Assembly: GCA_964457405.1 (NCBI GenBank)
Contig: CAYWEP010000002.1
Coordinates: forward strand, 1 to 48,094
Length of the DNA stretch: 48,094 bases
DNA from: an uncultured Gammaproteobacteria bacterium
GTDB taxonomy: Bacteria; Patescibacteriota; Microgenomatia; Levybacterales; UBA12049
Direction: 5' to 3'
Shown here: piece after piece, positions 11,854 through 48,043 of the stretch
Layout of the letters: each line of letters begins with the position of its first letter
How positions within the stretch are numbered: the first letter of the stretch is position 1
The notes under the pieces: model-generated
Database searches by the model: none
What the model saw: only the letters and a program-made list of their open reading frames with translations
What the model was told of the DNA's origin: nothing
Translations under genes and position numbers: made by a program

Positions 11854-11908
11854 CTTAAAGATGCGAATCAAGTTCGCGTGACAGGAGCCGGTTGCGTCGC
11901 ACAATTTC

Positions 11909-13267: not shown

Positions 13268-14182
13268 TTACGTTAGTATTTCCTTCCAGTCCTGCGCGAA
13301 TCGGATTATCCCTTTTTCCGTGAGCGGATGGGTGATATCCAATTTCCCTGATTCTATAGTCTGCATAAATGTATCAATGTTGTCAATTGTCAAAAGCTCC
13401 TCTGGCGTTTCCCAATGGGGAATGGGGCGGAGGCTTTGTGCATAGGTGACAATATCGAGTTTTTCCTGCTGTTTTTTGGAAAGCGCGAACCACTCACGGT
13501 ATGCTTTAACAGGCGCTGTGAGGATATCTGATCCAATAATCATACTTCTTTTCATATGCATAGCATTTCGGATCGAAGATGTGAGCATCCAGACCGCCAG
13601 CTGGCGGTCGAAATGGATTTTCAGTTTTACTCCTTGTTCTGCAAGACTCATGCCGTCCTCCCCTATATCATCAAGCCTGCCGACAAACGGCGAAATAAAT
13701 GGCGGCCAATGATTCTGAATCGGACCGAAATTTTTTTGCACAAGATGCTCGTGCATGCAAATAGCAAAGATTTGCTTTAGAGAAAAAACCAATGTATTGT
13801 TAATCGGAATTTTTTCTTTTCGTAAAATTGTCCGCGCTTTCAGTCCCTCAAGCGTCGTTGGCAGCTTCACGACTACCCGTTCATGCCAGGCTGCGATCTC
13901 TCTCCCCTGCTCTACCATTTCTTGCGCTTTGGTTTTTTCATCTGCGTATACCTCTGCCGAGACTGCGCCGGGAACAATCTGCAGTATTTCCATAACGATT
14001 TTTTTCTGCAACTCGTAGGCTTCTTGGAGTGTATATTTCTTCCCGGTCAGTTTTTTAGCAATTAACGTGGGGTTAGTAGTCGCTCCCCAGAGCTCGCTTC
14101 CTTGTCGTGTTGCCAGATCCTTTATTTCTCGATACTCCTCTGGGTCTCCGCTATCGAGGAGAAATTTCATCACCGTTTGCAT
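13268..14182 (-). CDS. Transaldolase / fructose-6-phosphate aldolase family protein
   Basis: KFLLDSGDPEEY, GATTNPTLI, VVVKLP (Schiff-base Lys context) and ISPFVGRLDD. An alternative ATG lies at 14170. Confidence 0.75.
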   Translation of the reverse strand: MQTVMKFLLDSGDPEEYREIKDLATRQGSELWGATTNPTLIAKKLTGKKYTLQEAYELQKKIVMEILQIVPGAVSAEVYADEKTKAQEMVEQGREIAAWHERVVVKLPTTLEGLKARTILRKEKIPINNTLVFSLKQIFAICMHEHLVQKNFGPIQNHWPPFISPFVGRLDDIGEDGMSLAEQGVKLKIHFDRQLAVWMLTSSIRNAMHMKRSMIIGSDILTAPVKAYREWFALSKKQQEKLDIVTYAQSLRPIPHWETPEELLTIDNIDTFMQTIESGKLDITHPLTEKGIIRFAQDWKEILT

Positions 14183-14208
14183 ATATGCAATAATAGCATA
14201 ATTCGACG

Positions 14209-14238
14209 TTGACAGTGTTTTGCCTTGCGTCGTAGAAT
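14209..14238 (+). promoter_or_regulatory. Candidate sigma-70-type promoter TTGACA-N18-TAGAAT ending 7 nt before the ATG at 14246
   Basis: -35 at 14209-14214 and -10 at 14233-14238. This geometry would give a leaderless xer mRNA. Confidence 0.35.
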
Positions 14239-14239
14239 A

Positions 14240-15175
14240 ATGATTATGGTTTCCCCACTTCCTGAGCTGATTAATAACTTCCTTGAATACCTCGAGATTG
14301 AGAAGAATTGTTCGAAATTAACTATCCGAGATTATAAGCACTATTTACAGACGTTTGAAGGGTGGTTTGTAACGCAGAAAGGAAAATCAATTGAGGGTCT
14401 TGATCTTGCCACAGTCCGTAAATATCGTGTCTTTCTTTCCAATAAGCCAACACAAAATGATCTCCCTCTAAAAAAAGTAACCCAAAACTATTATGTTATC
14501 GCGCTTCGATCGTTCCTTCGGTATCTTATAAAAAACGATATCCCAACGCTTGAGCCGTCAAAAATCGATTTACCAAAAACAGAGAGCAGAAGTTTGAAAT
14601 TTCTTGAACGCGACCAGATTGATAGGCTTGTCACGGCACCTGATACGAGTAAAGAAGAAGGTGTACGGGATCGTGCGATTTTAGAGCTTCTCTTCTCCAC
14701 TGGGCTTCGCGTTTCAGAACTTGTGCAGCTGAATCACAAGCAAATTAACCTTGATCGACGAGAATTCGGCGTGATCGGTAAAGGCGGCAGAAGTCGTATT
14801 GTTTTTGTTTCAGAGCATGCTGCCGAATGGGTCAAGCGGTATCTGGACAAGCGAAACGATCCCTTCAAGCCGCTTTTTATCCGGTATTCTGGACGAGTTG
14901 AGGAGCTCGATGAAGGGGAAAAAATGCGCCTGACAGCCCGAAGCGTTGAGCGGATTGTGAAAAAATATGTACGGCTTGCGCGCTTGCCGGTTGATGCGAC
15001 TGTCCATACCTTGAGACATTCGTTCGCAACTGATTTACTCACCAACGGCGCGGATCTTCGCTCAGTCCAGGAGATGCTCGGACACAAAAATATCGCAACA
15101 ACTCAGATTTATACGCATATTACCAATAAGCAATTACGGGAGGTTCACAAATCATTTCACTCAGGAAATAGATAG
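14240..15175 (+). CDS. xerC: Tyrosine site-specific recombinase, XerC/XerD family
   Basis: The N-terminal SAM-like domain (FLEYLEIEKNCSKLTIRDYKHYL), R..ELLFSTGLRVSEL and HTLRHSFATDLL..GADLRSVQEMLGHKNIATTQIYTH cover the R-H-R-Y catalytic set. The start is at 14240 or 14246; the track's TTG at 14225 is unlikely. Confidence 0.8.
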   Translation: MIMVSPLPELINNFLEYLEIEKNCSKLTIRDYKHYLQTFEGWFVTQKGKSIEGLDLATVRKYRVFLSNKPTQNDLPLKKVTQNYYVIALRSFLRYLIKNDIPTLEPSKIDLPKTESRSLKFLERDQIDRLVTAPDTSKEEGVRDRAILELLFSTGLRVSELVQLNHKQINLDRREFGVIGKGGRSRIVFVSEHAAEWVKRYLDKRNDPFKPLFIRYSGRVEELDEGEKMRLTARSVERIVKKYVRLARLPVDATVHTLRHSFATDLLTNGADLRSVQEMLGHKNIATTQIYTHITNKQLREVHKSFHSGNR

Positions 15176-15973: not shown

Positions 15974-16657
15974 TCAAATATATGTTTTTTTGAGATCGTT
16001 TTTGCCAAATGTTGTGTAGTTGTTGAGTTTGTCAAGGTTAAGCACTGTTACTCTTCTTCGCTCGACCCGTATAATGCCTTCATCCTCAAGTCGATGGATG
16101 GCAAGTGTTACTGTTTCGCGGAATGCGCCGACAAATTCTGCGATCCGCTGATGCGTCAGCTCAAGGCTGATGAGTATCCCCTTTCCTTTTTTGATACCGA
16201 ATTTTTCAGCGCAGTCACTTAAGAATATCGCAACACGGGGCGTGGTGCTCGCGTAGACAAAGCTCTCAAACTTTTTTTCAGTCAAGGCCAGCCGGTCACG
16301 AAATGCTTGTAAGAGCTCGATAAGAATCTCAGGATCATTGGTGATCCGCTCAAAACATTCCCGGCGTGAGATTGTCTGAACTTTAAGATTGGTAATCGCT
16401 TCGGCCGTATGCATGGTCCGATCGTCTTTTGAGAGGAGTGTACGGATACCAAGTAACTGTCCAGGACCGAGGAGATAACTTGTCGTCTCTCTTCCCTCCT
16501 CGGATAACCGATAAATTTTTATGTAGCCTTCTTTAATTAAATAGAGTCTTTCCAAAGGGTCGCCGGTGTTGAAGAGAATCGTTCCTTTTTTGACAAATTG
16601 CATTGGTGGTGAGTTAGGCGTTGAAAAAAGGGACGTGAAGTCCGCAGGATCCCACAT
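15974..16657 (-). CDS. Crp/Fnr-family transcriptional regulator (cNMP-binding domain plus C-terminal HTH)
   Basis: FVKKGTILFNTGDPLERLYLIKEGYIKIYRLSEEGRETT forms the beta-roll. LTHQRIAEFVGAFRETVTLAIHRLEDEGII forms the HTH. The start is uncertain: an ATG at 16657 or the track's TTG at 16735. Confidence 0.7.
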   Translation of the reverse strand: MWDPADFTSLFSTPNSPPMQFVKKGTILFNTGDPLERLYLIKEGYIKIYRLSEEGRETTSYLLGPGQLLGIRTLLSKDDRTMHTAEAITNLKVQTISRRECFERITNDPEILIELLQAFRDRLALTEKKFESFVYASTTPRVAIFLSDCAEKFGIKKGKGILISLELTHQRIAEFVGAFRETVTLAIHRLEDEGIIRVERRRVTVLNLDKLNNYTTFGKNDLKKTYI

Positions 16658-16826
16658 TCGATCAAGCCGTCCTTTCAATCTTTTCCGCGATTCATCCACG
16701 AGTAGACTATAGCATACAAAATCATGCGTTTGCAATGTAAATTTCTTACAATTTTAGCCTGATAACGCATACAGACAGTTTTTGTGGATGAGCATAAGAT
16801 GTGGGATAGATTGTCAGAGCAGCCTA

Positions 16827-16855
16827 TTGACAGGATTTTTTCTTGTTGTTAGTAT
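16827..16855 (+). promoter_or_regulatory. Candidate promoter TTGACA-N17-TAGTAT ending 7 nt before the ATG at 16863
   Basis: -35 at 16827-16832 and -10 at 16850-16855. It lies in the divergent Crp/KASIII intergenic region and implies a leaderless start at 16863. Confidence 0.35.
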
Positions 16856-16862
16856 CGTATTT

Positions 16863-17933
16863 ATGAGGACAGTACAAGAAATTGGCGAAATACCCATGAT
16901 CGTTGGTCTTGGGAAAGCAGTTGGAAGCCGGACAATGACCAATGCAGATATAGATGCTTTTCGTGGAAAGCCAACTGGTCTTACAGAGAGAGCAATGCGG
17001 ATGACTGGCGCAGGAATTGAAGAAAGACCATGGGTTGATGATACGCAAACGACATCAAGAATGTTGGCAGAAGCGATTGGTGAAGCATTGGAAGATGCAA
17101 AACGCCACCCAAAAGATCTCACTGCTGTGTTTATTGCAAGTACATCTCCAGACAGGCAAGATGGTTCGCTTGCCGGGCGAGTGCAATCAAGAGCCGGTTT
17201 ACGGATAGATATTCCAATTAGCACCAACGCTGATGCGTGCTCAGGCTTTGTCTACGCTGCACATCGTGCAGTTACTGCCATGACTTCGCCATACGGATCT
17301 ATCGAACAGGGGCCGGTTGCAGTTGCTTCATTTGAATTGATGAGTAGAAACCTGAGCAAGAAAGATAGCAATACAATACTTTTTGGTGATGGTGGTGGTG
17401 CAGTTATTTTAGATTGGAGAGTGCCAAGGCCAGGGTATGCAAATAAGATTGCATTCGCATTTGGAGCCAATGGAGGAGAAAATCTGGTTTTTGCCAACGC
17501 AATTCGCCTTTTAGCAGGTGGTACAGAAAAACCAGCAAGCCATGAAACAATCGATGCAGATGAGCATAGACTTACACTGGATGGAGATATGGTGCAGAAA
17601 TATGCGGAAGAAATTATGCCGATTCGATTATTTGAAGCATTACAAAGAGCAGGTTTAACATTAGACCAGATAGATAGGTTCGTTCCTCATCAAGCAAACA
17701 AGTTAATCATCAGTAATGTTGCTTTTAAAACTGGTATTCCTCTTGAAAAAGTTGAGATAGTAATTGATCGATATGGAAATACGTCTGCTGGCTCGATCCC
17801 AATCACATTATACGAAGCAGATCGAGGAGGAAAGCTTGAAGAGGGACAATATTTTGCAGCAGTAGCATTTGGCGCTGGATTTAATTCAGGAGCAATGGTT
17901 TTCCCAAATCCAGTGCACAGTAAAGCTATGTAA
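16863..17933 (+). CDS. 3-oxoacyl synthase III (FabH-like, Cys-His-Asn thiolase fold)
   Basis: NADACSGFVYAAH (Cys), FVPHQANKLI (His), RYGNTSAGSIP (Asn) and AFGAGFNSG. An alternative start lies at 16896; the track start at 16782 is unlikely. Confidence 0.75.
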   Translation: MRTVQEIGEIPMIVGLGKAVGSRTMTNADIDAFRGKPTGLTERAMRMTGAGIEERPWVDDTQTTSRMLAEAIGEALEDAKRHPKDLTAVFIASTSPDRQDGSLAGRVQSRAGLRIDIPISTNADACSGFVYAAHRAVTAMTSPYGSIEQGPVAVASFELMSRNLSKKDSNTILFGDGGGAVILDWRVPRPGYANKIAFAFGANGGENLVFANAIRLLAGGTEKPASHETIDADEHRLTLDGDMVQKYAEEIMPIRLFEALQRAGLTLDQIDRFVPHQANKLIISNVAFKTGIPLEKVEIVIDRYGNTSAGSIPITLYEADRGGKLEEGQYFAAVAFGAGFNSGAMVFPNPVHSKAM

Positions 17934-17939
17934 TACATT

Positions 17940-19181
17940 ATGGCTACTCAAGAAGCTCAAGAAAGAAGACGAGTTGTTGTTACGGGTATTGGAGCAATCT
18001 CCGCTCTCGGTTTTTCAGCTCAGGAAAACTTTCAAAACCTTGTTGACGGAAAGACTGGTCTCTCCTCTCTCCCATTTGAACATCCAACGATAAAACTCGC
18101 AGGACAGATAAAAAATTTTGATCTAAAGACAGTTTTTAGTGCATTTGATGACAAGCGACTGAAAGAAACGAATCGTCTCCCCCGTGCAGCACAAATAGGC
18201 CAAGCAGCTATGCAGGAGGCATTGCAAAGTGCTGACCTTTTGGATGATCATTCATTGCTGAAAGATCCAAGTGTTGCAGAGGATTTTCCAGTCTATCAAG
18301 CAACAGCAATCGGCGGAGGGTTTGACCTAGATATTCTTGAGGGAAAATCGAAGATACATATCATCCAGACGCTTCCAGATACTGTTGCGAGTGGTCCAGG
18401 TAGGATATTTGGATTACGAGGTACTTATTTGACACCTATGGCTGCGTGTGCAGGCGGTGGTGAGGCTATTGGCATTGCTTTTCGATTTATTAGGGATGGA
18501 TACAATGATATTGCTATTGCGGGAGGAGCAGAAAGTGGAATAACGCCAAGACACATTGATCAATATGATCAAATCCACGCCCTATCGCTGTCCGATGACC
18601 CAGAAAGAGCAAGTTTGCCCTTCGATGTTGATGCCTCAGGATTCGTCATGGCTGAAGCCGGAGCTGCTTTGATACTTGAATCAGAAGAACATGCAGTCAG
18701 AAGAGGAGCACAAATTCTTGCAGAAGTAAAATGGTTTGAGTCTGGCTCGGATGCATACCATCCTACGTCAGGAGATGGGTCTGCGCTTCGCAAAACAATG
18801 AGGCGGGTTCGTAAAGTATTGGGAGAGGTTGATGGAGCGCTCTTTGTGCAAGCGCATGCGACAGGGACAAAGGGAGACCTGGTTGAGGGTAAGGTAATTG
18901 AGAAAGTGTTGGAGGATGATCGTGAAAAAGTTGTTTATGCGTATAAACGGCGAACTGGGCACCCGCTCGGTGTGGCTGGTGTTTATGGAGCCTTCGTAAC
19001 AATCTATACTCTCAACGAAGGCGTCGTTCCTCCAAACAATGTTGAACACCCCGTAAAAGAGTTTGCATTTGAATTGCCACGAGAAGCAGTACAAAGAAAA
19101 TTCGCTGCTGGAATGAGTAACTCATTGGGTTTTGGTGGGGATACAAATACACTCGGATTTGTACCATATGTTCCTCGATAG
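17940..19181 (+). CDS. 3-oxoacyl synthase I/II (FabF/FabB-like, Cys-His-His)
   Basis: RRVVVTGIGAISALG, MAACAGGGEAIG (Cys), QAHATGTKGD (His), TGHPLGVAGV (His) and NSLGFGGDTNTLGF. Confidence 0.8.
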   Translation: MATQEAQERRRVVVTGIGAISALGFSAQENFQNLVDGKTGLSSLPFEHPTIKLAGQIKNFDLKTVFSAFDDKRLKETNRLPRAAQIGQAAMQEALQSADLLDDHSLLKDPSVAEDFPVYQATAIGGGFDLDILEGKSKIHIIQTLPDTVASGPGRIFGLRGTYLTPMAACAGGGEAIGIAFRFIRDGYNDIAIAGGAESGITPRHIDQYDQIHALSLSDDPERASLPFDVDASGFVMAEAGAALILESEEHAVRRGAQILAEVKWFESGSDAYHPTSGDGSALRKTMRRVRKVLGEVDGALFVQAHATGTKGDLVEGKVIEKVLEDDREKVVYAYKRRTGHPLGVAGVYGAFVTIYTLNEGVVPPNNVEHPVKEFAFELPREAVQRKFAAGMSNSLGFGGDTNTLGFVPYVPR

Positions 19182-19191
19182 CTTCGTAGTT

Positions 19192-20355
19192 CTACGCTGC
19201 TTTTCGGAGACCGTACTCTATTATCCCCCCATCAGCAGAACCACCGGCGCCATAGCCGACTACCATTATCCTTCTTCCTCCTTTTGCCTCCGGAAGAAGT
19301 CGGTTGTGCGCGATAAGCGTCGTTGCAGCGCTGCTGTTCCCATCTGGAACAACCCAAGGAATAGGTGGGCTCTCAACACCCGCTCTTACCAAGCGTTTCA
19401 CGAGGCCATCGCTCATTGCTTTAGAAGCAGGGTGCGCTGCAGTATATATGATATTTTTGCTTGGAAATTGTTGATTGTGTTCTTTGAGGACCTCTCCTAT
19501 AAATACTACCATCTCTCCCACGAAAAGCATAGAGGTTTTTCTATTATCAAGAACAAGAAGTAGGCCGTCTTGTGGCTTTGGGTATCGTATCAAATGAAGC
19601 CCGTTTTCGTCGTCCTCTTGCCAAATGTCTGCATTCTCTGGATCGAGTAGTCTCTCATAAGTCATATGCGCAGCAAGAGCACCCTCCGTGTCTTTAAAAA
19701 CTTTGCGCTTTACAGTATGTGCGATAATATCTTCCCCAGGAACTATTCCGATCCCTGCTGCTCCGTTTGAAAAAACTTGAATTGAAAAAGGGTCTGCTCG
19801 ATTAATATCTAAGTCCGGTGTAAGCGTGGTCACATTTTCCATTCCCAAAATAAGCACCTTTTTTCCTTGCAGATCTGGATTTGTTAAAGCGCGAAAAAAC
19901 TCGTGCGCGCCAGATGTGCATGCGGCATATGTGCTATGTGTCATGACATCCTCTCGCATCCCTAATTGTTGGGCAACGATGTTTGCGTAATTAACACCTA
20001 CGTTAGGATTATCAACGGGAGGAACACCACTTCCGACGAATACCGCATCAACGTCCGTTGGTTTCCATCCATTCAATTCTAACGTGGTTGTAGCGATTGT
20101 TTCCGCGACACTAAGCTCGTCCTGGATTGCATCATGCCTTTCAATACCAGCTCTTTGATGGTAGATATAGTCAAATCCTGTCGATGTAGAAAGTTCAATT
20201 TGCCTTACTCCCTGAAGTGCGAGCGCTTGGTGGATATCATCCATTGTCTTTTTCTCGCCCCAGTGCCCAACAACTCCTGGGAGATCCTCAGGACTCTCGT
20301 GTACCTCAAGATCAAGAATTGCGCCACTTGGTAAGCTCAGTCTCTCTACAGCCAT
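19192..20355 (-). CDS. Divergent KASIII / type III PKS-like condensing enzyme (Cys-His-Asn)
   Basis: HSTYAACTSGAHEF (Cys), YTAAHPASKAM (His), VPDGNSSAATTL (Asn) and VVGYGAGGS. The ATG at 20355 is preferred over the TTG at 20370. Confidence 0.6.
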   Translation of the reverse strand: MAVERLSLPSGAILDLEVHESPEDLPGVVGHWGEKKTMDDIHQALALQGVRQIELSTSTGFDYIYHQRAGIERHDAIQDELSVAETIATTTLELNGWKPTDVDAVFVGSGVPPVDNPNVGVNYANIVAQQLGMREDVMTHSTYAACTSGAHEFFRALTNPDLQGKKVLILGMENVTTLTPDLDINRADPFSIQVFSNGAAGIGIVPGEDIIAHTVKRKVFKDTEGALAAHMTYERLLDPENADIWQEDDENGLHLIRYPKPQDGLLLVLDNRKTSMLFVGEMVVFIGEVLKEHNQQFPSKNIIYTAAHPASKAMSDGLVKRLVRAGVESPPIPWVVPDGNSSAATTLIAHNRLLPEAKGGRRIMVVGYGAGGSADGGIIEYGLRKAA

Positions 20356-20426
20356 GAATTTATAGTACAAAAAAGAATTGGGGAAATTCTGTAGGAGGTA
20401 TTACAGAAGAGTGGTAAGAAGTTTTT

Positions 20427-21401
20427 TTATGCTGCTTGTCCCTGAAAACGCTTTGATGCATCTTTATAGCTAATAATTCCCGCTGTCATTTTATCGTATG
20501 ATGCTACTAATTCTCCACATTGATTAATAACCTTTGCACCTGCCATAAGGATTCCTCTGTCTCCTGAAATTCTTTTCATAAGACCCTTTGGAATAGTTTG
20601 AAGCTCATCGCCTGCTTTCACAGCTCTATAGTATTTACTCCCCGCTATTCTTTTGAAAAGACCCACGCTAATCGGGACTCCTTGATCATCAAGTTCAAGT
20701 CCATCTATTCCAAGTCCTATAGCTGCAACCGCTTGTACTGCTGCTTCATCAATCTCATCTGTAGGCAGTATGCTCTCGTCTGTTGGTTTGATTCTGAAAT
20801 GGACACCCCTCATATTTATTATTTCTTTTTCCCTATTAGACCCTCTGATATTTGCATAGTAATCACTGCCTTCTTGTCCTAGAAGCTCAGCCATGAAAAC
20901 TCCGGTTCCTCCTGGTTGAACAACCCCACTAAAGTCCACACCTGCAATATCAATCACAACAACTTCACCAGTGAAATCTGCAAGTGAAGTATTTGCTGCG
21001 GTAAGCCCGGCAGTCATAGCACCAGCACGTTCGCTATAGTGTCCTGGAAGCAGCTTATACTGCGATAGTAATCCACCGAAATGTCCAGTAAAATGAGCGC
21101 GAGGGGTGAGCGTTCCTATTCCTGTTTCTCCATCGGCTCTACGAAATCCGGTAATCGCTGGAAGGGATCGAGTCCACGCAACTAATTCAGGCGTAACAGT
21201 GAGAAATCCTCTCGCGTTTTCTCCATCCCCTTCTACTCGATGAATTCGTATTGCATTTGGACCCCAAATATCCTTGGCTGTTTGTGGGACGGTGTCTGGG
21301 AGAACTAAATCATGTTGTGGGAGCGAAAGATCGCCCGATGTTGGCGCTTGGAAACCTGCATCTTGAGGAGATATCGGATGTCTTGGTGATCCGTCTACCA
21401 T
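20427..21401 (-). CDS. FabZ/FabA-like hotdog-fold dehydratase, probably a double hotdog
   Basis: AHFTGHFGGLLSQYKLLPGHYSERAGAMTAG follows the FabZ active-site pattern H-F-x-G-H-F...P-G...E-x-x-A. The C-terminal half (FKRIAGSKYYRAVKAGDEL...VINQCGELV) looks like a second, MaoC-style hotdog. Confidence 0.45.
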   Translation of the reverse strand: MVDGSPRHPISPQDAGFQAPTSGDLSLPQHDLVLPDTVPQTAKDIWGPNAIRIHRVEGDGENARGFLTVTPELVAWTRSLPAITGFRRADGETGIGTLTPRAHFTGHFGGLLSQYKLLPGHYSERAGAMTAGLTAANTSLADFTGEVVVIDIAGVDFSGVVQPGGTGVFMAELLGQEGSDYYANIRGSNREKEIINMRGVHFRIKPTDESILPTDEIDEAAVQAVAAIGLGIDGLELDDQGVPISVGLFKRIAGSKYYRAVKAGDELQTIPKGLMKRISGDRGILMAGAKVINQCGELVASYDKMTAGIISYKDASKRFQGQAA

Positions 21402-21402
21402 A

Positions 21403-22515
21403 TTAAATCGGGCTCCTAAATGTCAACATCGGATGATCCTTTGGTATTTCCCGAACAATGTTAGCCTGCGCCTCTTCTGGAGTATTTGTTGGTCCAAGAA
21501 CATAGAGCTTTCTTGGCTGTCCTGGCGTCCAAAGTTCAGTGTCGTTTGGGTCTGACAGAAGCATTATCTGAACAGCTTTAGCCATATCTGTTCTTGTCAT
21601 GGGTTTGCTTGCTTCTGTATATCGGGTTTGCTCTTCAGCAGTCATGAGTTGAAAAATACCTCCTCGAAACATTGCACCCACATCTGTATCATCGATAACT
21701 TGTCCAATTACGGTATATGGATATACGCTGTCCATCTCCAAGTTTGATTTTCTTTCAGCAGACTGAATTTCAAGGTCAAATGATTTTTTAGGTACTGCTA
21801 CCGGCCAATACCAAAGTGGTACTTCTATGCCTGGTTGCCCAATTTGATCCGTCCAAATACTTCCAAAATTAATAATTTTTGCTCCTCGCTTGAACATACC
21901 TTGATAAAATAACTCGTCAAGAAGAAATTTCGGTCCAAAATAATTTGACTGCATTGCACCTGGCATTGCTTGCCATACCCATTCTCCAAGTTTTCTCTGT
22001 AGATCTACTCTTGCCTCTTGAAACGCTGCTTCAGTGCCCCTTTTCCTTATTCCTCTGAGCCTAACAAGTCCTCCTAGTAATTTGTCTTTTGTGTTGTAGG
22101 CTTGCATACCTTCCGCAGCGGCATGAACCCAGCTATTTAGAACAAAACCCTGACCTTCCAGCTCTATAACTTTTTCGACAATTCCAACGTGGTCGAGTAA
22201 ATCAACATCAAATGGAACAATGCCTTTTTCCAGATTAACTTCTCGAGAAATTTCCCCGGCTTCTTGTAATTCTCTTGCCTCAGCCGCAAATGTTTCAACA
22301 TTAGCAATATCTCGTGTTCCGATGGCTACATTTCCGCCGTTTTTGAGAACATCAAGCGCTACTACTTTCCCGGTACCGCGCCTGCCACCAGTAATGAGGT
22401 GATTTTCATCCCATAAGGGCAATGATTCTGCGGATTCTGTTCGGGGAAGAAAAGCGGCAGAGGCATCAATTGGGAAGGGTTGTCTACCGAGAATTATTCT
22501 TTCTGCGAATGCCAT
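21403..22515 (-). CDS. Rossmann-fold SDR-type oxidoreductase (candidate enoyl or keto reductase)
   Basis: HLITGGRRGTGKVVAL is a TGGxxGxG-type dinucleotide motif. WYWPVAVPKK gives a Tyr-x6-Lys spacing. The protein is 370 aa, longer than classical SDRs. Confidence 0.55.
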   Translation of the reverse strand: MAFAERIILGRQPFPIDASAAFLPRTESAESLPLWDENHLITGGRRGTGKVVALDVLKNGGNVAIGTRDIANVETFAAEARELQEAGEISREVNLEKGIVPFDVDLLDHVGIVEKVIELEGQGFVLNSWVHAAAEGMQAYNTKDKLLGGLVRLRGIRKRGTEAAFQEARVDLQRKLGEWVWQAMPGAMQSNYFGPKFLLDELFYQGMFKRGAKIINFGSIWTDQIGQPGIEVPLWYWPVAVPKKSFDLEIQSAERKSNLEMDSVYPYTVIGQVIDDTDVGAMFRGGIFQLMTAEEQTRYTEASKPMTRTDMAKAVQIMLLSDPNDTELWTPGQPRKLYVLGPTNTPEEAQANIVREIPKDHPMLTFRSPI

Positions 22516-22516
22516 A

Positions 22517-23461
22517 TTATGCTGCTTGAACTTGTCCTCTATAAAGAACTTGCATTTCTTGTCCGGTCAAATTCCCCGTTGTCTCAGCTGCAAAATAGAG
22601 ATATGCCAAGGCAACGTCTTGAGTGTTGATACCTTCAGGCATGCCAGCAAGCTTCAGAACACGTTTCTCGTCTTTTTCTGTTAGAGGTTTGGTCATTTCG
22701 GTTCCTGGAACAAGCCCAGGTGATACAACGTTTGCACGAATTTTAGAGTAGATACCTTCTCGACTAAGTGTTTTCACTAGCGACCGAGTTGCTCCATTCA
22801 GCATTGAGTATGGTGCCTGGCCAGGGCTCCCTTCATTTGCAATGCTCGATGTCGCTATCAACACTCCGCCACGAGGAGACTGATCCCTCATTTGCTTAAA
22901 CGCAGCTCTGAACAGCCGAACATTGCTCATACCTTTTACCTGCCAAAGCTTGTCAAAAGCCTCATCAGGTAAGTCCATAAAAGATCCATCTTCACGAACT
23001 CCATGGTTTGAGCCAACAATATCAAGTCTTCCAAACCTATTGACTGTTTCTTCTATCAGTCTGGCAGGTGCTTCAGGATTAGTGAGGTCGGCTGGAAGCC
23101 AATAGGCCTCGATACCTTTTCCCTGTAGTTCTTGTACGAGACTCTCTCCTTGCTCTCTGCTTCCTTCTGTTGCAGTAAGAACGAGTCGTGCACCCTGCGC
23201 GCCAAATTCTCTCGCGATTGCTGGACCAAGGCTATTATCGATTCCTCGACCTACGCCTGTAAGCAGCACTCCTTTGTCTTTTAGTAATTGTCCTTCACGA
23301 TATTCTGGTATGGTAAATCTAAATGCTTCAGGAATTTCAAATTTGAGGCTGTCTACTACTGGGTCCCCTCCGGCTGTTGCACCAGTATCGGGAGCGTAAA
23401 GAATGCTATCTGCTGGCAAACCAAATCTTGGGCCACCGAGTCTCTCTCCGCGTGCTGCCAT
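22517..23461 (-). CDS. SDR-family reductase with a FabI/FabG-like N-terminal motif and an atypical catalytic segment
   Basis: GVLLTGVGRGIDNSLGPAIAREFGAQGARLVL resembles the FabI sequence TGVASKLSIAYGIAQAM. Also present are SNHGV, ATSSIANEGSPGQAPYSMLNGATRSL and ANVVSPG. A roughly 60-aa N-terminal extension is present. Confidence 0.6.
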   Translation of the reverse strand: MAARGERLGGPRFGLPADSILYAPDTGATAGGDPVVDSLKFEIPEAFRFTIPEYREGQLLKDKGVLLTGVGRGIDNSLGPAIAREFGAQGARLVLTATEGSREQGESLVQELQGKGIEAYWLPADLTNPEAPARLIEETVNRFGRLDIVGSNHGVREDGSFMDLPDEAFDKLWQVKGMSNVRLFRAAFKQMRDQSPRGGVLIATSSIANEGSPGQAPYSMLNGATRSLVKTLSREGIYSKIRANVVSPGLVPGTEMTKPLTEKDEKRVLKLAGMPEGINTQDVALAYLYFAAETTGNLTGQEMQVLYRGQVQAA

Positions 23462-23527
23462 GATGTAAATTTAGCCTATTCTGGCGGACAATTCTGTAAC
23501 CATAATTACAAAAGATGAGTATAAATA

Positions 23528-24523
23528 TTAAGTTTTTGGTTTATATCCTTTTGGTACAACGCCGAGCATTATCTCATAGACGAGATCACCTATTGTAAAA
23601 TTAGGCTCTTTTCCGTCATTTTTCAGTTCTTCATTCCTTTTATGTATATTCGGTTCTGCCTCTTCAAGTGTGAAAGGTTGTGCAAATGTATACTCAGCTG
23701 TTCTCGCTGGACGAAATCCCCCTTTTCTATTGTTTTGGCTGCCTTTTTCGCCGATTCCTGCAACGAGAAATGCAATATTCTTAATTCCCTTTTTTCTTGC
23801 AGCCTTGATAAGTATTTGTATTGGTCCCATCTCAAACCGTGTCATACCTGGTTCTCTTCCCGCTTGTGGGAGTAAAACGTTTATACCAGGTTTTTCTCCT
23901 TCTGATTGGAGTATGTCTGTTGCCGTATCAAGGTAGTGTAAGAGCATTGTCCTTCCGTCTCGTCTTTTTCCCCGCATTTTTTTCTCATACTCCTCTCTAC
24001 CCATGTCAGCTTTGCCTATTCTTGAAGCAACATGATAGGTAAAAATTGTTTTTGCCCTTTCAAGTAGTGGTGGCTGGTCAAAGCTTCCTCCTTGTTCGCG
24101 GGTGTGAGGGGTGACTGTGCGAACTGCTGTAACGCCAAGGTAATTCGCTATTGGTGCGAGGATATCTTTCCATTGGTGATCGCCAACAGGGGTAATAACC
24201 TTAACATCACAGAAATAATCATCGGTAGCCCATAAAACCTCTAGTAATCCAAATGGGTCACGGCTTAATCGATGGTTTGCCACAACGATGCCACCGTTTC
24301 CATTTTGTAATAGTTGAACGAATTTTTTTACCGGTTCTACGGTCTCGCCTTCTGGCCCTTTCAGTATTCTATAAGGGAAAAGTGGCTTTCTGTTTAGGAG
24401 CTCTGCAATTCTTTTTCGTCTTCCTGCAATATCAGGCTGGGGTAAACCCAATCTTCTTGCCAATCGCGTTCTGTGGTCAATGGTAAGTGGTTGCCTTTGC
24501 GCTTGTGCTTCAGTAGCTACCAT
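23528..24523 (-). CDS. PlsC/LPLAT-family acyltransferase
   Basis: VVANHRLSRDPFG contains the acyltransferase motif I, H-x4-D. The protein is 331 aa. Confidence 0.55.
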   Translation of the reverse strand: MVATEAQAQRQPLTIDHRTRLARRLGLPQPDIAGRRKRIAELLNRKPLFPYRILKGPEGETVEPVKKFVQLLQNGNGGIVVANHRLSRDPFGLLEVLWATDDYFCDVKVITPVGDHQWKDILAPIANYLGVTAVRTVTPHTREQGGSFDQPPLLERAKTIFTYHVASRIGKADMGREEYEKKMRGKRRDGRTMLLHYLDTATDILQSEGEKPGINVLLPQAGREPGMTRFEMGPIQILIKAARKKGIKNIAFLVAGIGEKGSQNNRKGGFRPARTAEYTFAQPFTLEEAEPNIHKRNEELKNDGKEPNFTIGDLVYEIMLGVVPKGYKPKT

Positions 24524-24555
24524 GCAGAGGATTATATCATGATGTTAGGCGATAT

Positions 24556-25584
24556 TCATTTCGGAAGCGTGATCGAGTTATAAAAATCCGATAAGTTGGC
24601 GATAAGGTGCGTGTCTGATGACTGCAACGCGAGTTCCGCTGTACGCATAATAACTCCTTTTGACGAAAAGTTATGCGAGCCAAGCAGAGCAATTGCGCGA
24701 TCGACCAATAATATCTTTGCGTGCACAGGATTCTGCTCGTAATAGATAGTAAAATGGGTGTTTCGCAACCTCATTTGTATTTGGCTCATTTTATTCACGA
24801 TTCTGTAGACTCCAATGGTTCTGCCTGGTGGCGGGACTGCCAGCTCTATGCGTACGCCTCGGTTTTCTGCGTTAACCAACGCGTCCAAAAATACGCTATC
24901 TGGGATAAACGCAGTTGCGATTTGAACCAAATGGTCGGCTTTTTCAACCATCCTGACTGCACAATCAAGAATTACTGATTTGCCTGTCTGACCGCTGTCA
25001 ATAAAGAGCGTTGCGTTGTGTCTGGCTCGTAGTGTCTCATCATATCGCAGCGTCCCTTCGTGTACTTTCATAAAGACTTTGGCAATCGGTTCAACGATAG
25101 CATCATCTTTGATCTTTACCATTATATCCTGTCGTTTGAAGTAGCCGTCTGCAAAATTCACGCCACCGATCCAGGCAATATCGTCAATGATGAAAATTTT
25201 CATGTGGTTACGCCCCATCGTGTAGATGAATTTTTCAAGGAGCGTTGGTTTATTCACAAAAGCAACTTTACCTCCTTTATCTTTAATCTTTTGAAATGCT
25301 TCTTTCCTGATCCGGAGCCGCTTTCTCCACTTTCTCGATACAATAATAGGAAGAAAGTTAGGAACGCCATCGGTAACCATGAGCGAGTAATAATCGACAT
25401 TCATTCGCGCATCAAGACCGTTCTCGGCAGCATTTTCAACGATAGTAAGCAAACGACCAACTACTTCACCCGGCTCAACCTCCATTGCCTGCGCCCAAAT
25501 CCGTTTTTTTGCAAATTTTGCTTCTTGTTCTATGTCTGTAAGAAACTCCATTGGAGAAAGGACGTCAAAATGTTTTGCAGGCAT
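24556..25584 (-). CDS. Phospholipase D superfamily protein with two HKD motifs (cardiolipin/phosphatidylserine synthase-like)
   Basis: The motifs are HMKIFIIDDIAWIGGVNF and HAKILLVDRAIALLGSHNFS, each H-x-K-x4-D-x6-G-[GS]-x-N. I see no hydrophobic N-terminal segment. Confidence 0.75.
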   Translation of the reverse strand: MPAKHFDVLSPMEFLTDIEQEAKFAKKRIWAQAMEVEPGEVVGRLLTIVENAAENGLDARMNVDYYSLMVTDGVPNFLPIIVSRKWRKRLRIRKEAFQKIKDKGGKVAFVNKPTLLEKFIYTMGRNHMKIFIIDDIAWIGGVNFADGYFKRQDIMVKIKDDAIVEPIAKVFMKVHEGTLRYDETLRARHNATLFIDSGQTGKSVILDCAVRMVEKADHLVQIATAFIPDSVFLDALVNAENRGVRIELAVPPPGRTIGVYRIVNKMSQIQMRLRNTHFTIYYEQNPVHAKILLVDRAIALLGSHNFSSKGVIMRTAELALQSSDTHLIANLSDFYNSITLPK

Positions 25585-25651
25585 AATATTTGATTATACA
25601 GGAAGATTATCGACAATTTTCAGTCAAATCTAAATGTTTAAAATATTAAAA

Positions 25652-25665
25652 ATTGAATATTCAAT
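25652..25665. promoter_or_regulatory. Perfect 14-bp palindrome ATTGAATATTCAAT about 70 nt upstream of the PLD-led minus-strand gene string
   Basis: Read directly from the sequence. The position fits an operator, but the site sits inside an AT-rich satellite and its spacing (TTGA-N4-TCAA) does not match the Fnr or Crp consensus. Confidence 0.2.
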
Positions 25666-25713
25666 GAAAATTGAGAATTTAAAATTTTAAATTTATTTGA
25701 GGCTCGTTAAAAT

Positions 25714-26940
25714 TCAGAATGACATGAAGCTAAGAATGCGACCGAAACCAGGCTTAACAAGTACTTCCCCATCTTCAAAGACTTTCTTGCCACGCAAGAA
25801 AACTCGCAACACTTTCCCTTTTACTTTCCATCCATCAAACGGCGACCATTTACATTTGGTTAGTAAGTTTTCGTTTTTGATCTCATACGATGCTTTCGGA
25901 TCAACCTCAATATATGTTGTTCGATTATTCGAATAATCGAAGGAAGATAAAAAAATTTTGGCGGGTCCAGTATGGCAGAGACGGATGACGTCATCGATGG
26001 TTAGTCTGTTTTCGGAAACGGCGGTTAGCAATAAGGATAGCGTTGTTTCAAGGCCAGGGACACCAAATGGCGGGTTATCGGCTTGTTTCTCCTCCAACGT
26101 ATGCGGAGCATGATCTGATTCAACCAAGTCGATCGCATCGAGGTGTTTCCAGAGAAAATCCACATCTTTTTTACCTCGCAACGGAGGCCTCATCATACCA
26201 AGATTTTTTAAATGATTTAAATCATTTTCTGTAAGAAACAAATGGTGTGGGGTCATACCGCAGGTTACAGGCAAACCGCTGTTTTTCGCTTTAATAATGC
26301 GTTCCAGTTCATATTTTCTGCTCATGTGGCAAAGGTGTAGCTTTCTCGGGTATTTTCTGAGAACCTCCAAAACATCGTCAAATGTTTGTTCCTCAGCATG
26401 GACAAGGATAGGAAGCTCCGAAGGCCACTCGGCAAAGATTTTCTCAAGATACGATTTATCAAGCAAAAAATTGCCTGTTGTGTGGTTTAGATAAAGTTTT
26501 AAACCAAAGACCGGAAAGTTGTCATCCTGGCCCTTCGGTCCTGAGCTCAAGGTCGAAGGACTTGTCCAGGATCTCTTACGCTGAGAGATTCTGGAGTCCT
26601 CCACGCTTCGCCCTATACCAGACGGTACGGGGCTTCGCTCTGAGTCCCCAGAATGACGTGGTTGTATTTTAAATTTCTCAAATTCATCCAGATTATCCCC
26701 CACTGAGCCAAAGTGAAATCCAACATCGCAAACTATTTTCTCTCTGGCAATCTGCATCTTCTCATTTAATCGCTCAAGAGTCGTAATCGGGGTGGGATTA
26801 TTGGGCATGTCAATGACTGTAGTATATCCTCCAGCAAGTGCAGCGGATGTGCCGGTAAAAAAATCTTCTTTGTCAGTCTGTCCAGGATCTCTGAGGTGGA
26901 CGTGAGGATCAATGAGGCCGGGTAAAATCTGCTTCGACAT
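25714..26940 (-). CDS. pyrC: Dihydroorotase with a roughly 50-aa in-frame insertion
   Basis: LPGLIDPHVHLRDPG, GGYTTVIDMPN, HAEE and ESDHAPH. The ATG at 26940 is preferred over the TTG at 26964. Confidence 0.8.
   Translation of the reverse strand: MSKQILPGLIDPHVHLRDPGQTDKEDFFTGTSAALAGGYTTVIDMPNNPTPITTLERLNEKMQIAREKIVCDVGFHFGSVGDNLDEFEKFKIQPRHSGDSERSPVPSGIGRSVEDSRISQRKRSWTSPSTLSSGPKGQDDNFPVFGLKLYLNHTTGNFLLDKSYLEKIFAEWPSELPILVHAEEQTFDDVLEVLRKYPRKLHLCHMSRKYELERIIKAKNSGLPVTCGMTPHHLFLTENDLNHLKNLGMMRPPLRGKKDVDFLWKHLDAIDLVESDHAPHTLEEKQADNPPFGVPGLETTLSLLLTAVSENRLTIDDVIRLCHTGPAKIFLSSFDYSNNRTTYIEVDPKASYEIKNENLLTKCKWSPFDGWKVKGKVLRVFLRGKKVFEDGEVLVKPGFGRILSFMSF
26521..26657. repeat. 137-bp GC-rich MITE-like element with 10-bp terminal inverted repeats (GTCATCCTGG ... 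CCAGAATGAC) inside pyrC
   Basis: The TIRs match at 9 of 10 positions. There are internal palindromes. It encodes ..PRHSGDSERSPVPSGIGRSVEDSRISQRKRSWTSPSTLSSGPKGQDD.. between conserved DHOase blocks. Confidence 0.65.
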
Positions 26941-26945
26941 ATTTT

Positions 26946-29900
26946 TTAGATATATTCCTCCCAAGATTTTATCAGGAGGTCGTCAAGGGATTTTTGGGCA
27001 ATGGCTTTTATGAAAAGCTCGGCTTTATTGAGATTGGTATAAAGCTGGATATTATGATCAACAGCTGCGCGGCGGATCGCATAGTCATCATCAATATGGC
27101 GTTTGATGTGCGGATCGGCGATATTGATGGCAAGGTCAATTTTGCCATTTTGGAAGTAGTCAAGCACATTTGGTGAAGCATGCTCATGGAGCTTGTAGAG
27201 AGGTTTTGCCGATACTTCCTGACTATTGAGGAATTTGGCTGTTTTTTCTGTAGCGTAAATAGGAAGGTGAAGTTTGGCAAGTTGTTTGGCATGTGGCAGA
27301 AAATCAGCTTTATTTCCCTCACCACCGAGCGAGAGGAATATGCCTAGTTTTGGTATTTTGCCGCCGACTGACAGCTCTCCTTTGAGAAATGCTTCCTCAA
27401 CATCCTCGCCAAAGCAGGCAACTTCGCCGGTTGATGCCATTTCGACTCGTAAAATAGGATCTGCGCCGGTGATGCGTTGGAAAGAAAATTGTGGCACTTT
27501 TACGGCGACAAATGGCAAGGGTCGGACGGATTGGGTTGGAGTTTTCTTGTTAAAAAATCCGTCAACCGCAAGCGATATAAAATCCACACCCATCACTTTG
27601 GATATAAAAGGGAATGTACGGGAGGCCCGAAGGTTAATCTCAATAACAGAAATCTTATTATCTTTTGCCAGAAATTGGATATTGAATGGTCCGGTGATCG
27701 AAAGTGCTTTGGCCAGTTTCTTTGCGACATGCTCGATTGCCTGTTTGGTCTGCACGTATACTTTCTGTGCAGGCAATACAATCGTCGCATCGCCTGAATG
27801 CACTCCGGCATTTTCCACATGCTCTGATATGACGAGAGCCTTGATTTCACCTTTGTTGGCGACCGCATCAAGCTCTATCTCCTTGGCATCTTCTATGAAT
27901 TTGGAAACGGTTATCGGATATTCGGATGAGACAAGCGTTGCTTGCGTGATATACCGTGTCAGCTCTTCCTCGTCGCGGCAGATGCGCATATACGTTCCTG
28001 AGAGGACATAGGAAGGGCGGATCAGGACAGGGTAGTCGACCCGGTCACAGAATTTCCTAAGTTTTGCAAAATCCGAAAACGTATCCCACTGAGGCTGGTC
28101 AACGCCAAGCATATCAAGCAGCTTTGAAAACTTATTCCTATCTTCTGCCTTATCAATATCTGAGGGATTTGTACCCAGAATTATGCATCCGTATGCGTGT
28201 AAGGACTTCGCCCTGTTGTTGGGCGTTTGTCCGCCGACTGAAATAATAACGCCATAAGGATTTTCAAAATCATAAATATCCGCTATCCGTTCAAACGTCA
28301 GTTCTTCAAAATACAGCCGGTCTGAGACATCATAGTCTGTTGAGACTGTCTCAGGATTGCAATTGATCATTACAGACTGTTTCCTATGATTCTTCAGCGC
28401 GAGTGCAGTGTTGACAGTTGTCCAGTCAAACTCGACAGATGAGCCGATCCTATACGGGCCAGAGCCTAGCACCAATACCCCGTCTTTCCCAAGTGGCGCA
28501 AGATCGTTGTGGGATCCGTTGTATGTGACATACAAATAATTGGTTTTTGCCGGAAATTCTCCGGCCAGCGTGTCGATCTGAAAAATAGACGGCATTACTT
28601 TTAGTTTTTTGCGAAGCGCGCGGATCTCAAGCCCTGTTTTTCCCACAATCATGCCGATTCGCTTATCGGAAAAGCCAAGTTGTTTGAGCCCTAATACATT
28701 TTCTTTCGTTAGCGATTTTGTTTTTGCCAGCTTTTTTTCTTCATCAACGATATTTTTTATTCTATATAGAAACCATGGATCTATGCCTGTGAGTTTGTAT
28801 ACTTCATCAACCGAGATATTCTCATAAAACGCTTTTGCGATAGCGAACATACGATGGGATGTTGGCTTTGCGACCATAGCTTTTGTATCCTGCTCATTTG
28901 AGTCGCCCAGCATTTTTTCATTGACCGCGCCCTCAAATTCCAAATCAAGCATGCGAATTGCTTTCTGGTACGCTTCTTCAAATGTCCGTCCAATTCCCAT
29001 AACCTCGCCCACAGATTTCATGCTGCTGCCGATGACGTCTTCCGCGTTATGGAATTTGTTAATGTCCCAGCGCGGAATTTTCACCGTCACATAGTCAAGT
29101 GCGGGTTCAAAGCAAAACTGCGTGGCTTTGGTGACTTTGTTCTGAAGCTCTGTGAGATTCTTGCCGAGAGCGAGTTTGGCCGCGACATAGGCAAGCGGAT
29201 AACCAGTGGCTTTACTGGCGAGGGCGGAGCTTCGGGATAATCTCGCATTTAGCTCAATAACGTAATAATCTAAAGCACGAATATCGAAATCCGAAGTCCG
29301 AAACAAATTCGAATTCTCAAAATTCGAAGGTTCATAAGGTTTCTTGTTTTGGTCATTTGCATTTTGATATTGTTTCGTATTTCGAAATTCGGATTTCGGA
29401 TTTGCCCGCCCGCCATCGCTACGCTCTGGCGTTAGCGGGCGGGGATTAAGGGCGAATTGAACATTACATTCTCCAACTATCTTTAAGCTTCTAACTATCT
29501 TGATAGCAATACTTCGTAAGGTGTGGTACTCAAAGTTGGTCAGCGTCTGGCTTGGTGCGATGACGATTGATTCTCCAGTATGGATGCCAAGTGGATCCAT
29601 GTTTTCCATATTGCAGACAGTGATACAATTATCATCTTTGTCGCGAACCACTTCATACTCAACTTCTTTGTAGTGGTGTAAGTATTTTTCTACTAACACT
29701 TGTGGGACAAAAGAGAATGCTCGTTCAGTAATTTTTCTAAGTGTTTTTTCGTTTTGCGCAATGCCTGATCCCTGGCCGCCTAAGGCAAATCCCGAGCGGA
29801 CCATGACTGGGTATCCCATATCCTCTGCGATTTTGAGCGCTTGTTTTGTGTTTTTCGCAGCGTGGCTTGGCGGCGTGGCTACGCTGATGATCGCCAGATG

Positions 29901-48037: not shown

Positions 48038-48043
48038 CGAAAA

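Follow-up and report, generated by a model that had tools for sequence, protein, structure and literature searches.

Layout of the locus and its genes

We analyzed a stretch of 48,094 nucleotides (contig CAYWEP010000002.1 of GenBank assembly GCA_964457405.1), referred to here as the window, and concentrated on nine closely packed open reading frames (ORFs) at 15974-25584 that encode enzymes resembling those of type II fatty acid synthesis (FASII), together with an acyltransferase, a phospholipase D (PLD)-superfamily enzyme and a Crp/Fnr-type regulator. An original prediction, made from the sequence without database searches, had placed nine genes here, and their coordinates, order and strands all held when the ORFs were checked (Table 1). 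The crp gene is divergent from fabH-fabF, which converges with a six-gene minus-strand operon transcribed in the order PLD enzyme, acyltransferase, SDR314, SDR370 (two short-chain dehydrogenase/reductases, SDRs), hotdog protein and KAS3b, a divergent condensing enzyme. Gaps between the genes are 1-66 nt, except for a ∼160-bp crp-fabH promoter region (taking the fabH start as 16896). The host, which had been thought to resemble members of the candidate phyla radiation (CPR), is Candidatus Levybacteria, a CPR lineage, according to the NCBI naming of the cluster proteins, and is a groundwater bacterium with a very small genome. Proteins identical to those of the window were found on three further assemblies, so that four independent assemblies carry them. 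All FAS-type proteins scored below the NCBIfam cut-off of the nearest family, and three products (the hotdog protein, the acyltransferase and SDR370) are listed as 'hypothetical protein' in the public record. Comparisons below are with related loci, designated L004 (GCA_016188975.1), L006 and L013-L016.

Table 1. Features of the cluster in order of position in the window.
Feature	Position	Strand	Supporting match or remark
Crp/Fnr-family transcription regulator	15974..16735	-	cNMP_binding PF00027 2.8e-16; HTH_Crp_2 PF13545 1.4e-15
Perfect palindrome TGTAAATTTCTTACA	16736..16750	.	crp-fabH intergenic region; sole such site in the window
FabH-like β-ketoacyl-ACP synthase III (KASIII), Cys-His-Asn triad	16782..17933 (ORF)	+	ACP_syn_III_C 1.1e-28
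Promoter-like site TTGACA-17-TAGTAT (with TG)	16827..16855	+	upstream of fabH-fabF; 10/12 matches
FabF-like elongating ketosynthase, Cys-His-His + Lys	17940..19181	+	ketoacyl-synt 1.1e-31
KAS3b, very divergent KASIII/thiolase-fold enzyme, 392 aa	19192..20370	-	last gene of the minus-strand operon
Tandem double FabZ-like hotdog protein, 324 aa	20427..21401	-	profile of 10 relatives matches FabZ with both halves
SDR370, divergent SDR with FabI/FabL-type Y-x6-K spacing, 370 aa	21403..22515	-	weak N-terminal adh_short match
SDR314, FabG-like ketoreductase SDR, 314 aa	22517..23461	-	adh_short_C2 1.1e-35; KR 1.3e-12
Soluble, basic GPAT/LPLAT-like acyltransferase, 331 aa	23528..24523	-	HX4D and PQAGR motifs
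Two-HKD PLD-superfamily enzyme, soluble, basic, 342 aa	24556..25584	-	first gene of the minus-strand operon

The plus-strand genes encode the FabH-like and FabF-like ketosynthases (KS) that had been predicted. The FabH-like protein scored 184.6 bits with the NCBIfam KASIII model (cut-off 249), and its closest solved relative was Thermus thermophilus FabH (PDB 1ub7, 1.2e-39). Because this alignment begins at residue 40, the true start is probably M39 (ATG at 16896), which would give a protein of 345 aa and which falls downstream of the conserved promoter-like site. The motifs DACSGF, PHQAN and GNTS, which carry the KASIII triad of FASII, are kept in L004. At the position corresponding to Arg249 of E. 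coli FabH (in PHQANLR), a docking residue for acyl carrier protein (ACP), the window protein has Leu (PHQANKL) and the L004 protein Ser, with Lys one residue earlier in both. For the FabF-like protein, the score with TIGR03150 (fabF) was 252.6 bits against a cut-off of 493.75, and the closest solved relative was Bacillus subtilis FabF (PDB 4ls5, 1.5e-50), with which ACAGG, HATGT, YK..GHPLG and GFGG, the residues of an elongating FASII ketosynthase, align in register. KS active-site motifs are retained in every KS variant of the locus. The matches of KAS3b were weak (PF08541, 1.3e-4; NCBIfam KASIII, 3.8e-8; PDB 6a9n, 9.3e-5), but its AACxS, AH and DGNSSAAT motifs are kept in the L004 orthologue at 31% identity, in agreement with the proposal of a second Cys-His-Asn condensing enzyme.

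The two reductases had been read as SDR-fold proteins, which holds clearly for SDR314 and was backed by a weak Rossmann match for SDR370. SDR314 scored 122 bits with TIGR01830 (cut-off 297.75), and its YSMLN motif (residues ∼215-219) has Asn in place of the catalytic Lys, whereas its counterparts in L004, L015 and L016 keep YxxxK. SDR370 matched a FabG structure (PDB 4dml) at 1.9e-4 and reached no family model; for its orthologues and fused relatives the best NCBIfam matches were PRK07806 and the N-terminus of FabL. A Y-x6-K motif in SDR370, its orthologues and the fused SDR domains aligns with Y156 and K163 of E. coli FabI, making SDR370 a candidate enoyl reductase. The claim that the genes cover every step of a β-carbon processing cycle was thus partly sustained: enzymes of the condensing, ketoreducing and dehydrating types are present, and probably one for enoyl reduction, but the last is recognized from Y-x6-K only and the ketoreductase is without its catalytic Lys.

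The hotdog protein had been described as FabZ-like, which the profile comparison upheld, although it is a tandem double hotdog and not one FabZ. As a single sequence it gave no match in Pfam, NCBIfam or the PDB, and a profile of 10 sequences matched solved FabZ structures with both its N-terminal half (1.6e-9) and its C-terminal half (∼1e-5). The family is small, with nine members in 1.84 billion cluster representatives and three close relatives in 5.8 billion proteins. Three residues, H107, R125 and E219, do not vary in the family: His107 corresponds to the catalytic His of FabZ, R125 occupies the position of the FabZ catalytic Glu in the N-terminal half, and E219 sits in the C-terminal half in a 'DEIxEA' helix resembling the 'IEAxAQ' of FabZ. 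The His and Glu of FabZ/FabA are therefore both present, but they are spread over two fused folds. We infer that the protein is a pseudo-dimer with one active site, predicted to consist of His107 and Glu219, as in polyketide synthase (PKS) dehydratase domains. PKS and type I FAS dehydratase domains likewise have two hotdog folds per chain, with the His from the N-terminal fold and an acidic residue from the central helix of the C-terminal fold. In contrast to PKS dehydratases, the window protein is free-standing, its acidic residue is a Glu in a FabZ-like 'IEAxAQ' context, and it resembles stand-alone FabZ in both halves and not the PS-DH models (no Pfam match). An AlphaFold2 model built from three sequences had a pLDDT of 31 and was not used. 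Among distant relatives, P0008 and P0012 are fusions of an SDR with a double hotdog, and P0013-P0015 are fusions of an SDR with one canonical FabZ (Pfam FabA) that adjoin a KS on another Patescibacteria contig; such fusions in other Patescibacteria suggest that the reduction and dehydration steps are functionally linked.

The acyltransferase carries an invariant H84-x4-D89 and a conserved P219-Q-A-G-R223 (P-Q/E-A/S-G/E-R) among six family members, and these blocks correspond to motifs I and III of the lysophospholipid acyltransferases (LPLAT). Four members of the family were found in 5.8 billion proteins, in addition to two L006 paralogues. No above-threshold family match was obtained with the single sequence against Pfam, NCBIfam or the PDB, or with a profile against the PDB; the Pfam acyltransferase model PF01553 aligned over the HX4D region at E=0.098 (12.9 bits; cut-off 23). 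In a Foldseek search with an AlphaFold2 model of low confidence (pLDDT 49), the top two matches were the glycerol-3-phosphate acyltransferases (GPAT) GPAT1 (8e4y) and plastid GPAT (8ia1), with probabilities of 0.94 and 0.93, E of ∼1e-2 and TM-scores of 0.33-0.39. Three weak lines thus agree on a GPAT/LPLAT-like enzyme, which we take as a tentative assignment short of proven membership. PlsC, the type named in the original prediction, ranked 15 (5kym) in the Foldseek search.

The PLD enzyme, by comparison, matched PLDc_2 (7.9e-24, in two stretches) and PLDc (1.7e-10) and has both HKD motifs (HMKIFIID and HAKILLVD), as predicted. It scored 64.7 bits with the cardiolipin synthase (Cls) model TIGR04265, below the cut-off of 290, and has an isoelectric point of 9.4 with no predicted transmembrane or hydrophobic segment. 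Its orthologues in L013-L016, 42-73% identical, adjoin pyrC. In relatives the acyltransferase gene adjoins the PLD gene, and the pair accompanies KS, SDR and dehydratase genes in four further loci. We considered a defence-system nuclease as the identity of the PLD enzyme and set it aside, since the gene is constantly beside acyltransferase, KS and ABC-2 genes.

The regulator belongs to the Crp/Fnr family by the presence of both a cNMP-binding domain and a C-terminal Crp-type helix-turn-helix. Its publicly annotated start gives 241 aa. The top NCBIfam model was NtcA, at 96 bits against a cut-off of 245, and assignment to an NtcA, CRP or FNR subfamily was not reached. A crp gene also adjoins the cluster in L004 (80% identical) and in L006 (95%). 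The palindrome TGTAAATTTCTTACA abuts a minus-strand promoter-like site for crp, and the L004 intergenic region carries TGTAAATTTGTTACA at the equivalent position; from its position, the palindrome is a likely operator of the Crp-family regulator. On the other strand, TTGACAG...GTTAGTATC is kept in the crp-fabH region of L004, although that region has otherwise diverged.

Carrier protein genes in the window and in related loci

A well-known requirement of FASII is a carrier protein, and the original prediction had drawn attention to its lack. ORF, small-ORF and six-frame checks bore this out. No ACP, FabD, AcpS, acetyl-CoA carboxylase (ACC), PlsX/Y or CdsA was present among the 40 main ORFs of the window; Pfam searches of 15 small non-genic ORFs and four more in or beside the cluster revealed no carrier; and an ACP hidden Markov model, built from E. 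coli and B. subtilis ACP sequences, found no match when six-frame ORFs of 30 aa or more were searched in the window and in loci L001-L006. Nor was Pgs seen among the window genes. A carrier domain fused to the N-terminal extensions of the SDRs was considered and rejected: the candidate stretches ('VVDSLKF' in SDR314 and a DltC-like stretch in SDR370, E=0.14) are either too short or an ordinary SDR β3-α4 segment.

A different picture emerged from L016, which encodes a 4'-phosphopantetheinyl transferase (PPTase; PF01648, 8e-16) and a FabD-like malonyl transferase (PF00698, 4e-14) with the motifs GLSLGF and GAFHS and the Arg in 'KARG'. Together with a 520-aa protein, these stand where the window has its two KASIII-type enzymes. 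The gene content points to an L016-type variant of the cassette that would depend on malonyl units and a carrier, so that the cassette family would be carrier-dependent in at least one variant. Because this sister variant has PPTase and FabD-like genes, and because the window ketosynthase is closest to ACP-dependent FabF, we expect the carrier used by the window enzymes to be encoded elsewhere. For the same reasons, the original suggestion of a carrier-independent, CoA-based product route is weakened.

Two further features of L016 were observed beside these genes. The 520-aa protein (10895-12457), encoded between the PPTase and FabD-like genes, has no Pfam match, and none of the other loci, the window included, encodes a homologue. 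The second feature is a stretch of ∼500 nt (13825-14350) that separates the FabD-like gene from the gene for a SIMPL protein; its GC content is 53-62% within a locus of 45% GC, it gave no Rfam match, and a foreign gene, a highly divergent carrier and an RNA are all conceivable identities. Its only protein-like ORF (100-161 aa, containing 'NLDSSSIGEAL' and ending in -AA) looked ACP-like at first sight but could not be verified as a carrier: it found no Pfam, PDB or hhalign support beyond that of shuffled controls and had an aberrant third-position GC content (GC3) of 0.67.

One explanation for these results is that the window enzymes carry out fatty acid synthesis without a carrier, their substrates being thioesters of CoA (or pantetheine) in the manner proposed for archaea, with the acyltransferase using acyl-CoA. 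This would account for the lack of ACP, AcpS and FabD in 48 kb and in the partial loci of two relatives, and for the presence of two enzymes of the KASIII type, the class that takes CoA primers, exactly where L016 has its PPTase, FabD and 520-aa protein. The FabH-like PHQANKL, compared with the E. coli PHQANLR and its docking Arg249, is in keeping with it as well, and the same possibility has been raised for Nealsonbacteria, which have FAS-II homologues without AcpS and FabD (PMC7242380). Nevertheless, all residues of the Cys-His-His-Lys set are present in the FabF-like enzyme, whose nearest relatives are ACP-dependent FabFs, the sister variant L016 has a PPTase and a FabD-like enzyme, and absence from one contig is not equal to absence from a genome. 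To our knowledge, no FabF-type ketosynthase works without a carrier. On balance we regard a carrier-free cycle as fairly unlikely.

Variation, composition and surroundings of the island

In all relatives recovered, the locus occupies the same position between pyrC and SIMPL/xerC, and its gene content varies sharply. L004 has the six core enzymes and Crp, without the acyltransferase and the PLD enzyme. L006, whose Crp and Xer proteins are 95% and 90% identical to those of the window, has a methyltransferase-like gene added and encodes two acyltransferase paralogues (35% identical to the acyltransferase of the window), an enoyl-reductase-like SDR, a 70-aa ketoreductase (KR) fragment, a KS unlike that of the window (27%) and a double hotdog (61%). 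An ABC-2 transporter is inserted between the PLD and acyltransferase genes in L013 and L015, and in L014 and L016 pyrC, PLD and acyltransferase genes are followed by convergent genes for a 498-aa KS, a 296-aa double hotdog and two SDRs; in L016 the SDR genes are followed by those for the PPTase, the 520-aa protein and the FabD-like enzyme, and then by SIMPL. The PyrC and SIMPL proteins of L016 are 63% and 60% identical to those of the window, placing it at about the same distance from the window as L004. A search of GTDB representative genomes with the FabF-like protein recovered only an unrelated Magnetospirillum locus.

Identity falls sharply inside the locus relative to its flanks. Across relatives, at 31-71% identity, the three KS enzymes and the dehydratase keep their catalytic residues. 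Total GC content is flat across the window. When composition was compared with the flanks, as had been proposed as a check on the prediction, GC3 of the core enzymes and the acyltransferase (16896-24523) was 0.28-0.39, against 0.42-0.48 for the flanking genes, with correspondingly higher GC at first and second codon positions; the PLD and Crp genes had GC3 like the flanks. A GC3 dip was also observed in L004, L006, L015 and L016. The shared position, the shared dip and the drop in identity inside the locus indicate that the island is an old insertion site whose cargo has been repeatedly replaced or is fast-evolving. The composition does differ, as a recent acquisition would have it, but the common position and dip in relatives speak against recency.

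A shared C-terminal dipeptide was also noted. Three window proteins, KAS3b (..LRKAA), the hotdog protein (..GQAA) and SDR314 (..VQAA), end in Ala-Ala, compared with 0/37 other window proteins; across loci, -AA endings occur in 15/46 locus genes and in 1/52 flanking genes (Fisher p=4e-5), including enzymes of L004, L006, L013 and L016. The ending resembles that of the ssrA degradation tag.

The variation bears on whether the cluster is a housekeeping set, that is, a very divergent fab/pls/cls set with which an autonomous Levybacterium would make its membrane lipids de novo. All four FAS reaction types are represented, as are a GPAT/LPLAT-like enzyme and a PLD enzyme resembling cardiolipin synthase, the locus lies at a conserved position among pyrC, carAB, pyrB, folD and gyrAB, and the equipment of the genome (de novo pyrimidine synthesis, H+-PPase, transaldolase) is unusually rich by CPR standards. 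Against this, content differs drastically between close relatives (the KR fragment of L006; L004 without acyltransferase and PLD), the window KR has no catalytic Lys, PlsX/Y, CdsA, Pgs and ACC were not seen in the window, relatives have gained exporter and methyltransferase-like genes reminiscent of specialised-lipid clusters, and members of these families are extremely scarce, CPR metagenomes included. We therefore consider a housekeeping role fairly unlikely.

Several of the same observations could also be expected of a decaying, non-functional remnant of a horizontally acquired FAS/PKS cluster: the Lys-to-Asn change in the KR active site, the KR fragment of L006, the deviant codon composition, scores below all family cut-offs and the lack of nearby carrier genes. 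However, the nine ORFs are intact and tightly packed (gaps of 1-66 nt), the four independent assemblies encode identical proteins, the KS and dehydratase residues persist in relatives at 31-71% identity, and the upstream region holds a promoter and an operator-like palindrome that are conserved. Decay thus appears very unlikely.

One flank of the cluster carries genes for trehalase, transaldolase, a XerC-like recombinase and the SIMPL protein, with genes including those for EF-P, an MFS transporter and Lgt farther upstream, beyond trehalase; the other carries pyrC, carB, carA, pyrB, folD, gyrA (with an intein), H+-PPase, gyrB, DNA polymerase III delta' and type IV pilus genes. The contrast that had been drawn between the cluster and neighbours riddled with REP-like insertions was not confirmed, since no dispersed REP-like DNA repeat was found in the window, although PyrC (25714-26964) does have a 57-aa Ser/Arg/Pro-rich low-complexity in-frame insertion (residues ∼103-160) that is not repeated as DNA in the window. 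L004 has a different insertion at this site, and L015 and L016 have none. The GyrA intein (gene at 33559-37512) includes a LAGLIDADG homing-endonuclease domain (Intein_splicing, 9e-13; LAGLIDADG_3, 1.2e-16). An IS200-like Y1 transposase gene (1470-2147) is bounded by a 24-nt inverted repeat (1398-1421 and 2148-2171), and this element (1398-2171) adjoins a tRNA-Leu(CAA) gene (2204-2291), the only RNA gene found in the window. At 9861-10715 is encoded a 284-aa protein with approximately nine hydrophobic segments and no Pfam match, which is CdsA-like in size and topology and has no detectable similarity to CdsA. The adjoining AT-rich 1.2 kb (10716-11908) has no credible ORF or Rfam match and contains short AAATTTC-type repeats that recur at 48041-48075.

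Interpretation and relation to known lipid systems

From the gene content, the fold and family assignments, the catalytic residues, the lack of carrier genes in the window, and the synteny, variability and composition described above, we propose that the cluster is an accessory type II FAS-like cassette, restricted to its clade and repeatedly reshuffled by horizontal transfer, which would make an acyl chain for a glycerolipid using a carrier protein encoded elsewhere. This proposal, in which the substrate, the product, the carrier and the functions of acyltransferase, PLD enzyme and regulator are inferred, has in our view about an even chance of being right. Support for the four FAS reaction types comes from the family assignments and the conserved catalytic residues. 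In the proposed scheme, the FabH-like KASIII, possibly also KAS3b, would prime synthesis from acyl-CoA, and the FabF-like KS would extend the chain with malonyl units. SDR314 would reduce the 3-keto group, the double-hotdog protein would dehydrate the product and SDR370, with its Y-x6-K motif, would act as enoyl reductase. The finished chain may then be passed by the soluble GPAT/LPLAT-like acyltransferase to glycerol-phosphate or a lysolipid acceptor, and the PLD enzyme may catalyze a phosphatidyl transfer, either a head-group exchange or a reaction of the cardiolipin- or phosphatidylserine (PS)-synthase type. The Crp/Fnr-type regulator would control the divergent fabH-fabF promoter region. 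The thioester carrier would most likely be a phosphopantetheinylated protein encoded outside the 48 kb, or one too divergent to recognise.

Several observations weigh against this cassette model. No ACP, AcpS, FabD or ACC was found in the window, in 21 kb of L004 or in L006, nor was a source of malonyl-CoA seen; the L016 PPTase and FabD-like enzyme have no homologues in these three loci, and L016 itself yielded no carrier protein that could be confirmed. Every FAS-type protein falls short of its NCBIfam cut-off. SDR314, without the catalytic Lys, does not have the Ser-Tyr-Lys set of FabG, the basis of the enoyl-reductase assignment of SDR370 is the Y-x6-K motif by itself, and the acyltransferase was assigned from motifs and a low-confidence model.

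Compared with bacterial FASII, the window has the same kinds of discrete enzymes for condensation, ketoreduction, FabZ-type dehydration and probably enoyl reduction (the Y-x6-K SDR), and its HX4D acyltransferase and two-HKD enzyme recall the PlsC/GPAT and PLD-type Cls or PS synthase that accompany FASII. It differs in that acpP, fabD, acpS and acc are not present in the window, members score below NCBIfam cut-offs, the dehydratase consists of two hotdogs fused in one chain, with a single predicted active site, the enoyl-reductase-like SDR has a large insertion, the KR has no Lys, a very divergent extra KASIII is present, the PLD enzyme is soluble with no transmembrane helices, and gene content varies between close relatives.

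Discrete KS, KR and dehydratase enzymes with an LPLAT-type acyltransferase and an exporter are also found in aryl-polyene and type II PKS-like lipid clusters. The likeness in the exporter lies with the ABC-2 transporters of L013 and L015, not with the window, and unlike those clusters the window has no KS-CLF (chain-length factor) pair, ACPs, thioesterase or MMPL/LolA-type export genes among its ORFs. The enoyl-reductase-like SDR, in addition, argues for a saturated chain.

CPR bacteria are widely described as lacking fatty acid and phospholipid synthesis and as depending on hosts for their membranes (PMC7242380). In the study of Probst et al. (2020; PMC7242380), no CPR genome encoded a complete lipid pathway and no ACP-producing or ACP-requiring enzymes were identified in the CPR genomes analyzed; Nealsonbacteria had FAS-II homologues and phospholipid acyltransferases without recognisable ACP-processing machinery, and an ACP-independent pathway was raised for them. 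This was the only relevant report that we found, searches for literature on fatty acid synthesis in Levybacteria or Microgenomates and on ACP or PPTase in Patescibacteria having returned nothing specific. The window resembles the Nealsonbacteria in having CPR FAS-II homologues without ACP machinery, and the gap is thus already known and is seen here in another CPR lineage. Unlike the Nealsonbacteria, which are Parcubacteria, the window belongs to Microgenomates/Levybacteria and holds its genes in one compact, hypervariable island with PLD and GPAT-like enzymes (a comparison of gene content, not of sequences); and unlike in that study, a related island, L016, has a PPTase and a FabD-like enzyme. 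What is new here is the fused double FabZ, the FabI-like SDR, the pair of GPAT-like and PLD enzymes, the hypervariable island and the relative with a PPTase and a FabD-like enzyme.

ACP-independent fatty acid synthesis has been proposed for archaea (Lombard, Lopez-Garcia and Moreira 2012, as cited in PMC7242380). With a carrier-free interpretation of the window it would share a FAS-like cycle on CoA esters without ACP or AcpS. The archaeal route reportedly employs thiolase/DUF35, a MaoC-type dehydratase and MDR/SDR reductases, and not FabH- or FabF-type decarboxylating ketosynthases or a FabZ-type hotdog. A bolder form of the carrier-free idea, which we hold to be distinctly unlikely, is that this CPR lineage runs a FabH/FabF-type cycle without any ACP: the intermediates would be thioesters of CoA or of free pantetheine, and the additional KASIII-like enzymes would take the place of FabD, ACP and PPTase. 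The product would then serve to build or remodel the cell's own glycerolipids, the island would be exchanged between Levybacteria, and the -AA ending would possibly act as a signal for proteolysis or assembly.

The locus also contributes three protein families so far unannotated: the Y-x6-K SDR, the GPAT-like acyltransferase and the dehydratase with two fused FabZ-like halves. Whether ketosynthases of the FabF type can function in the absence of a recognisable ACP is a question that it could answer. As a compact and intact island of FAS-like, acyltransferase and PLD genes with its Crp/Fnr gene, it is a concrete, clonable test case for lipid autonomy in the CPR, and it could reveal that synthesis, elongation or remodelling of lipids is within the reach of some CPR lineages.

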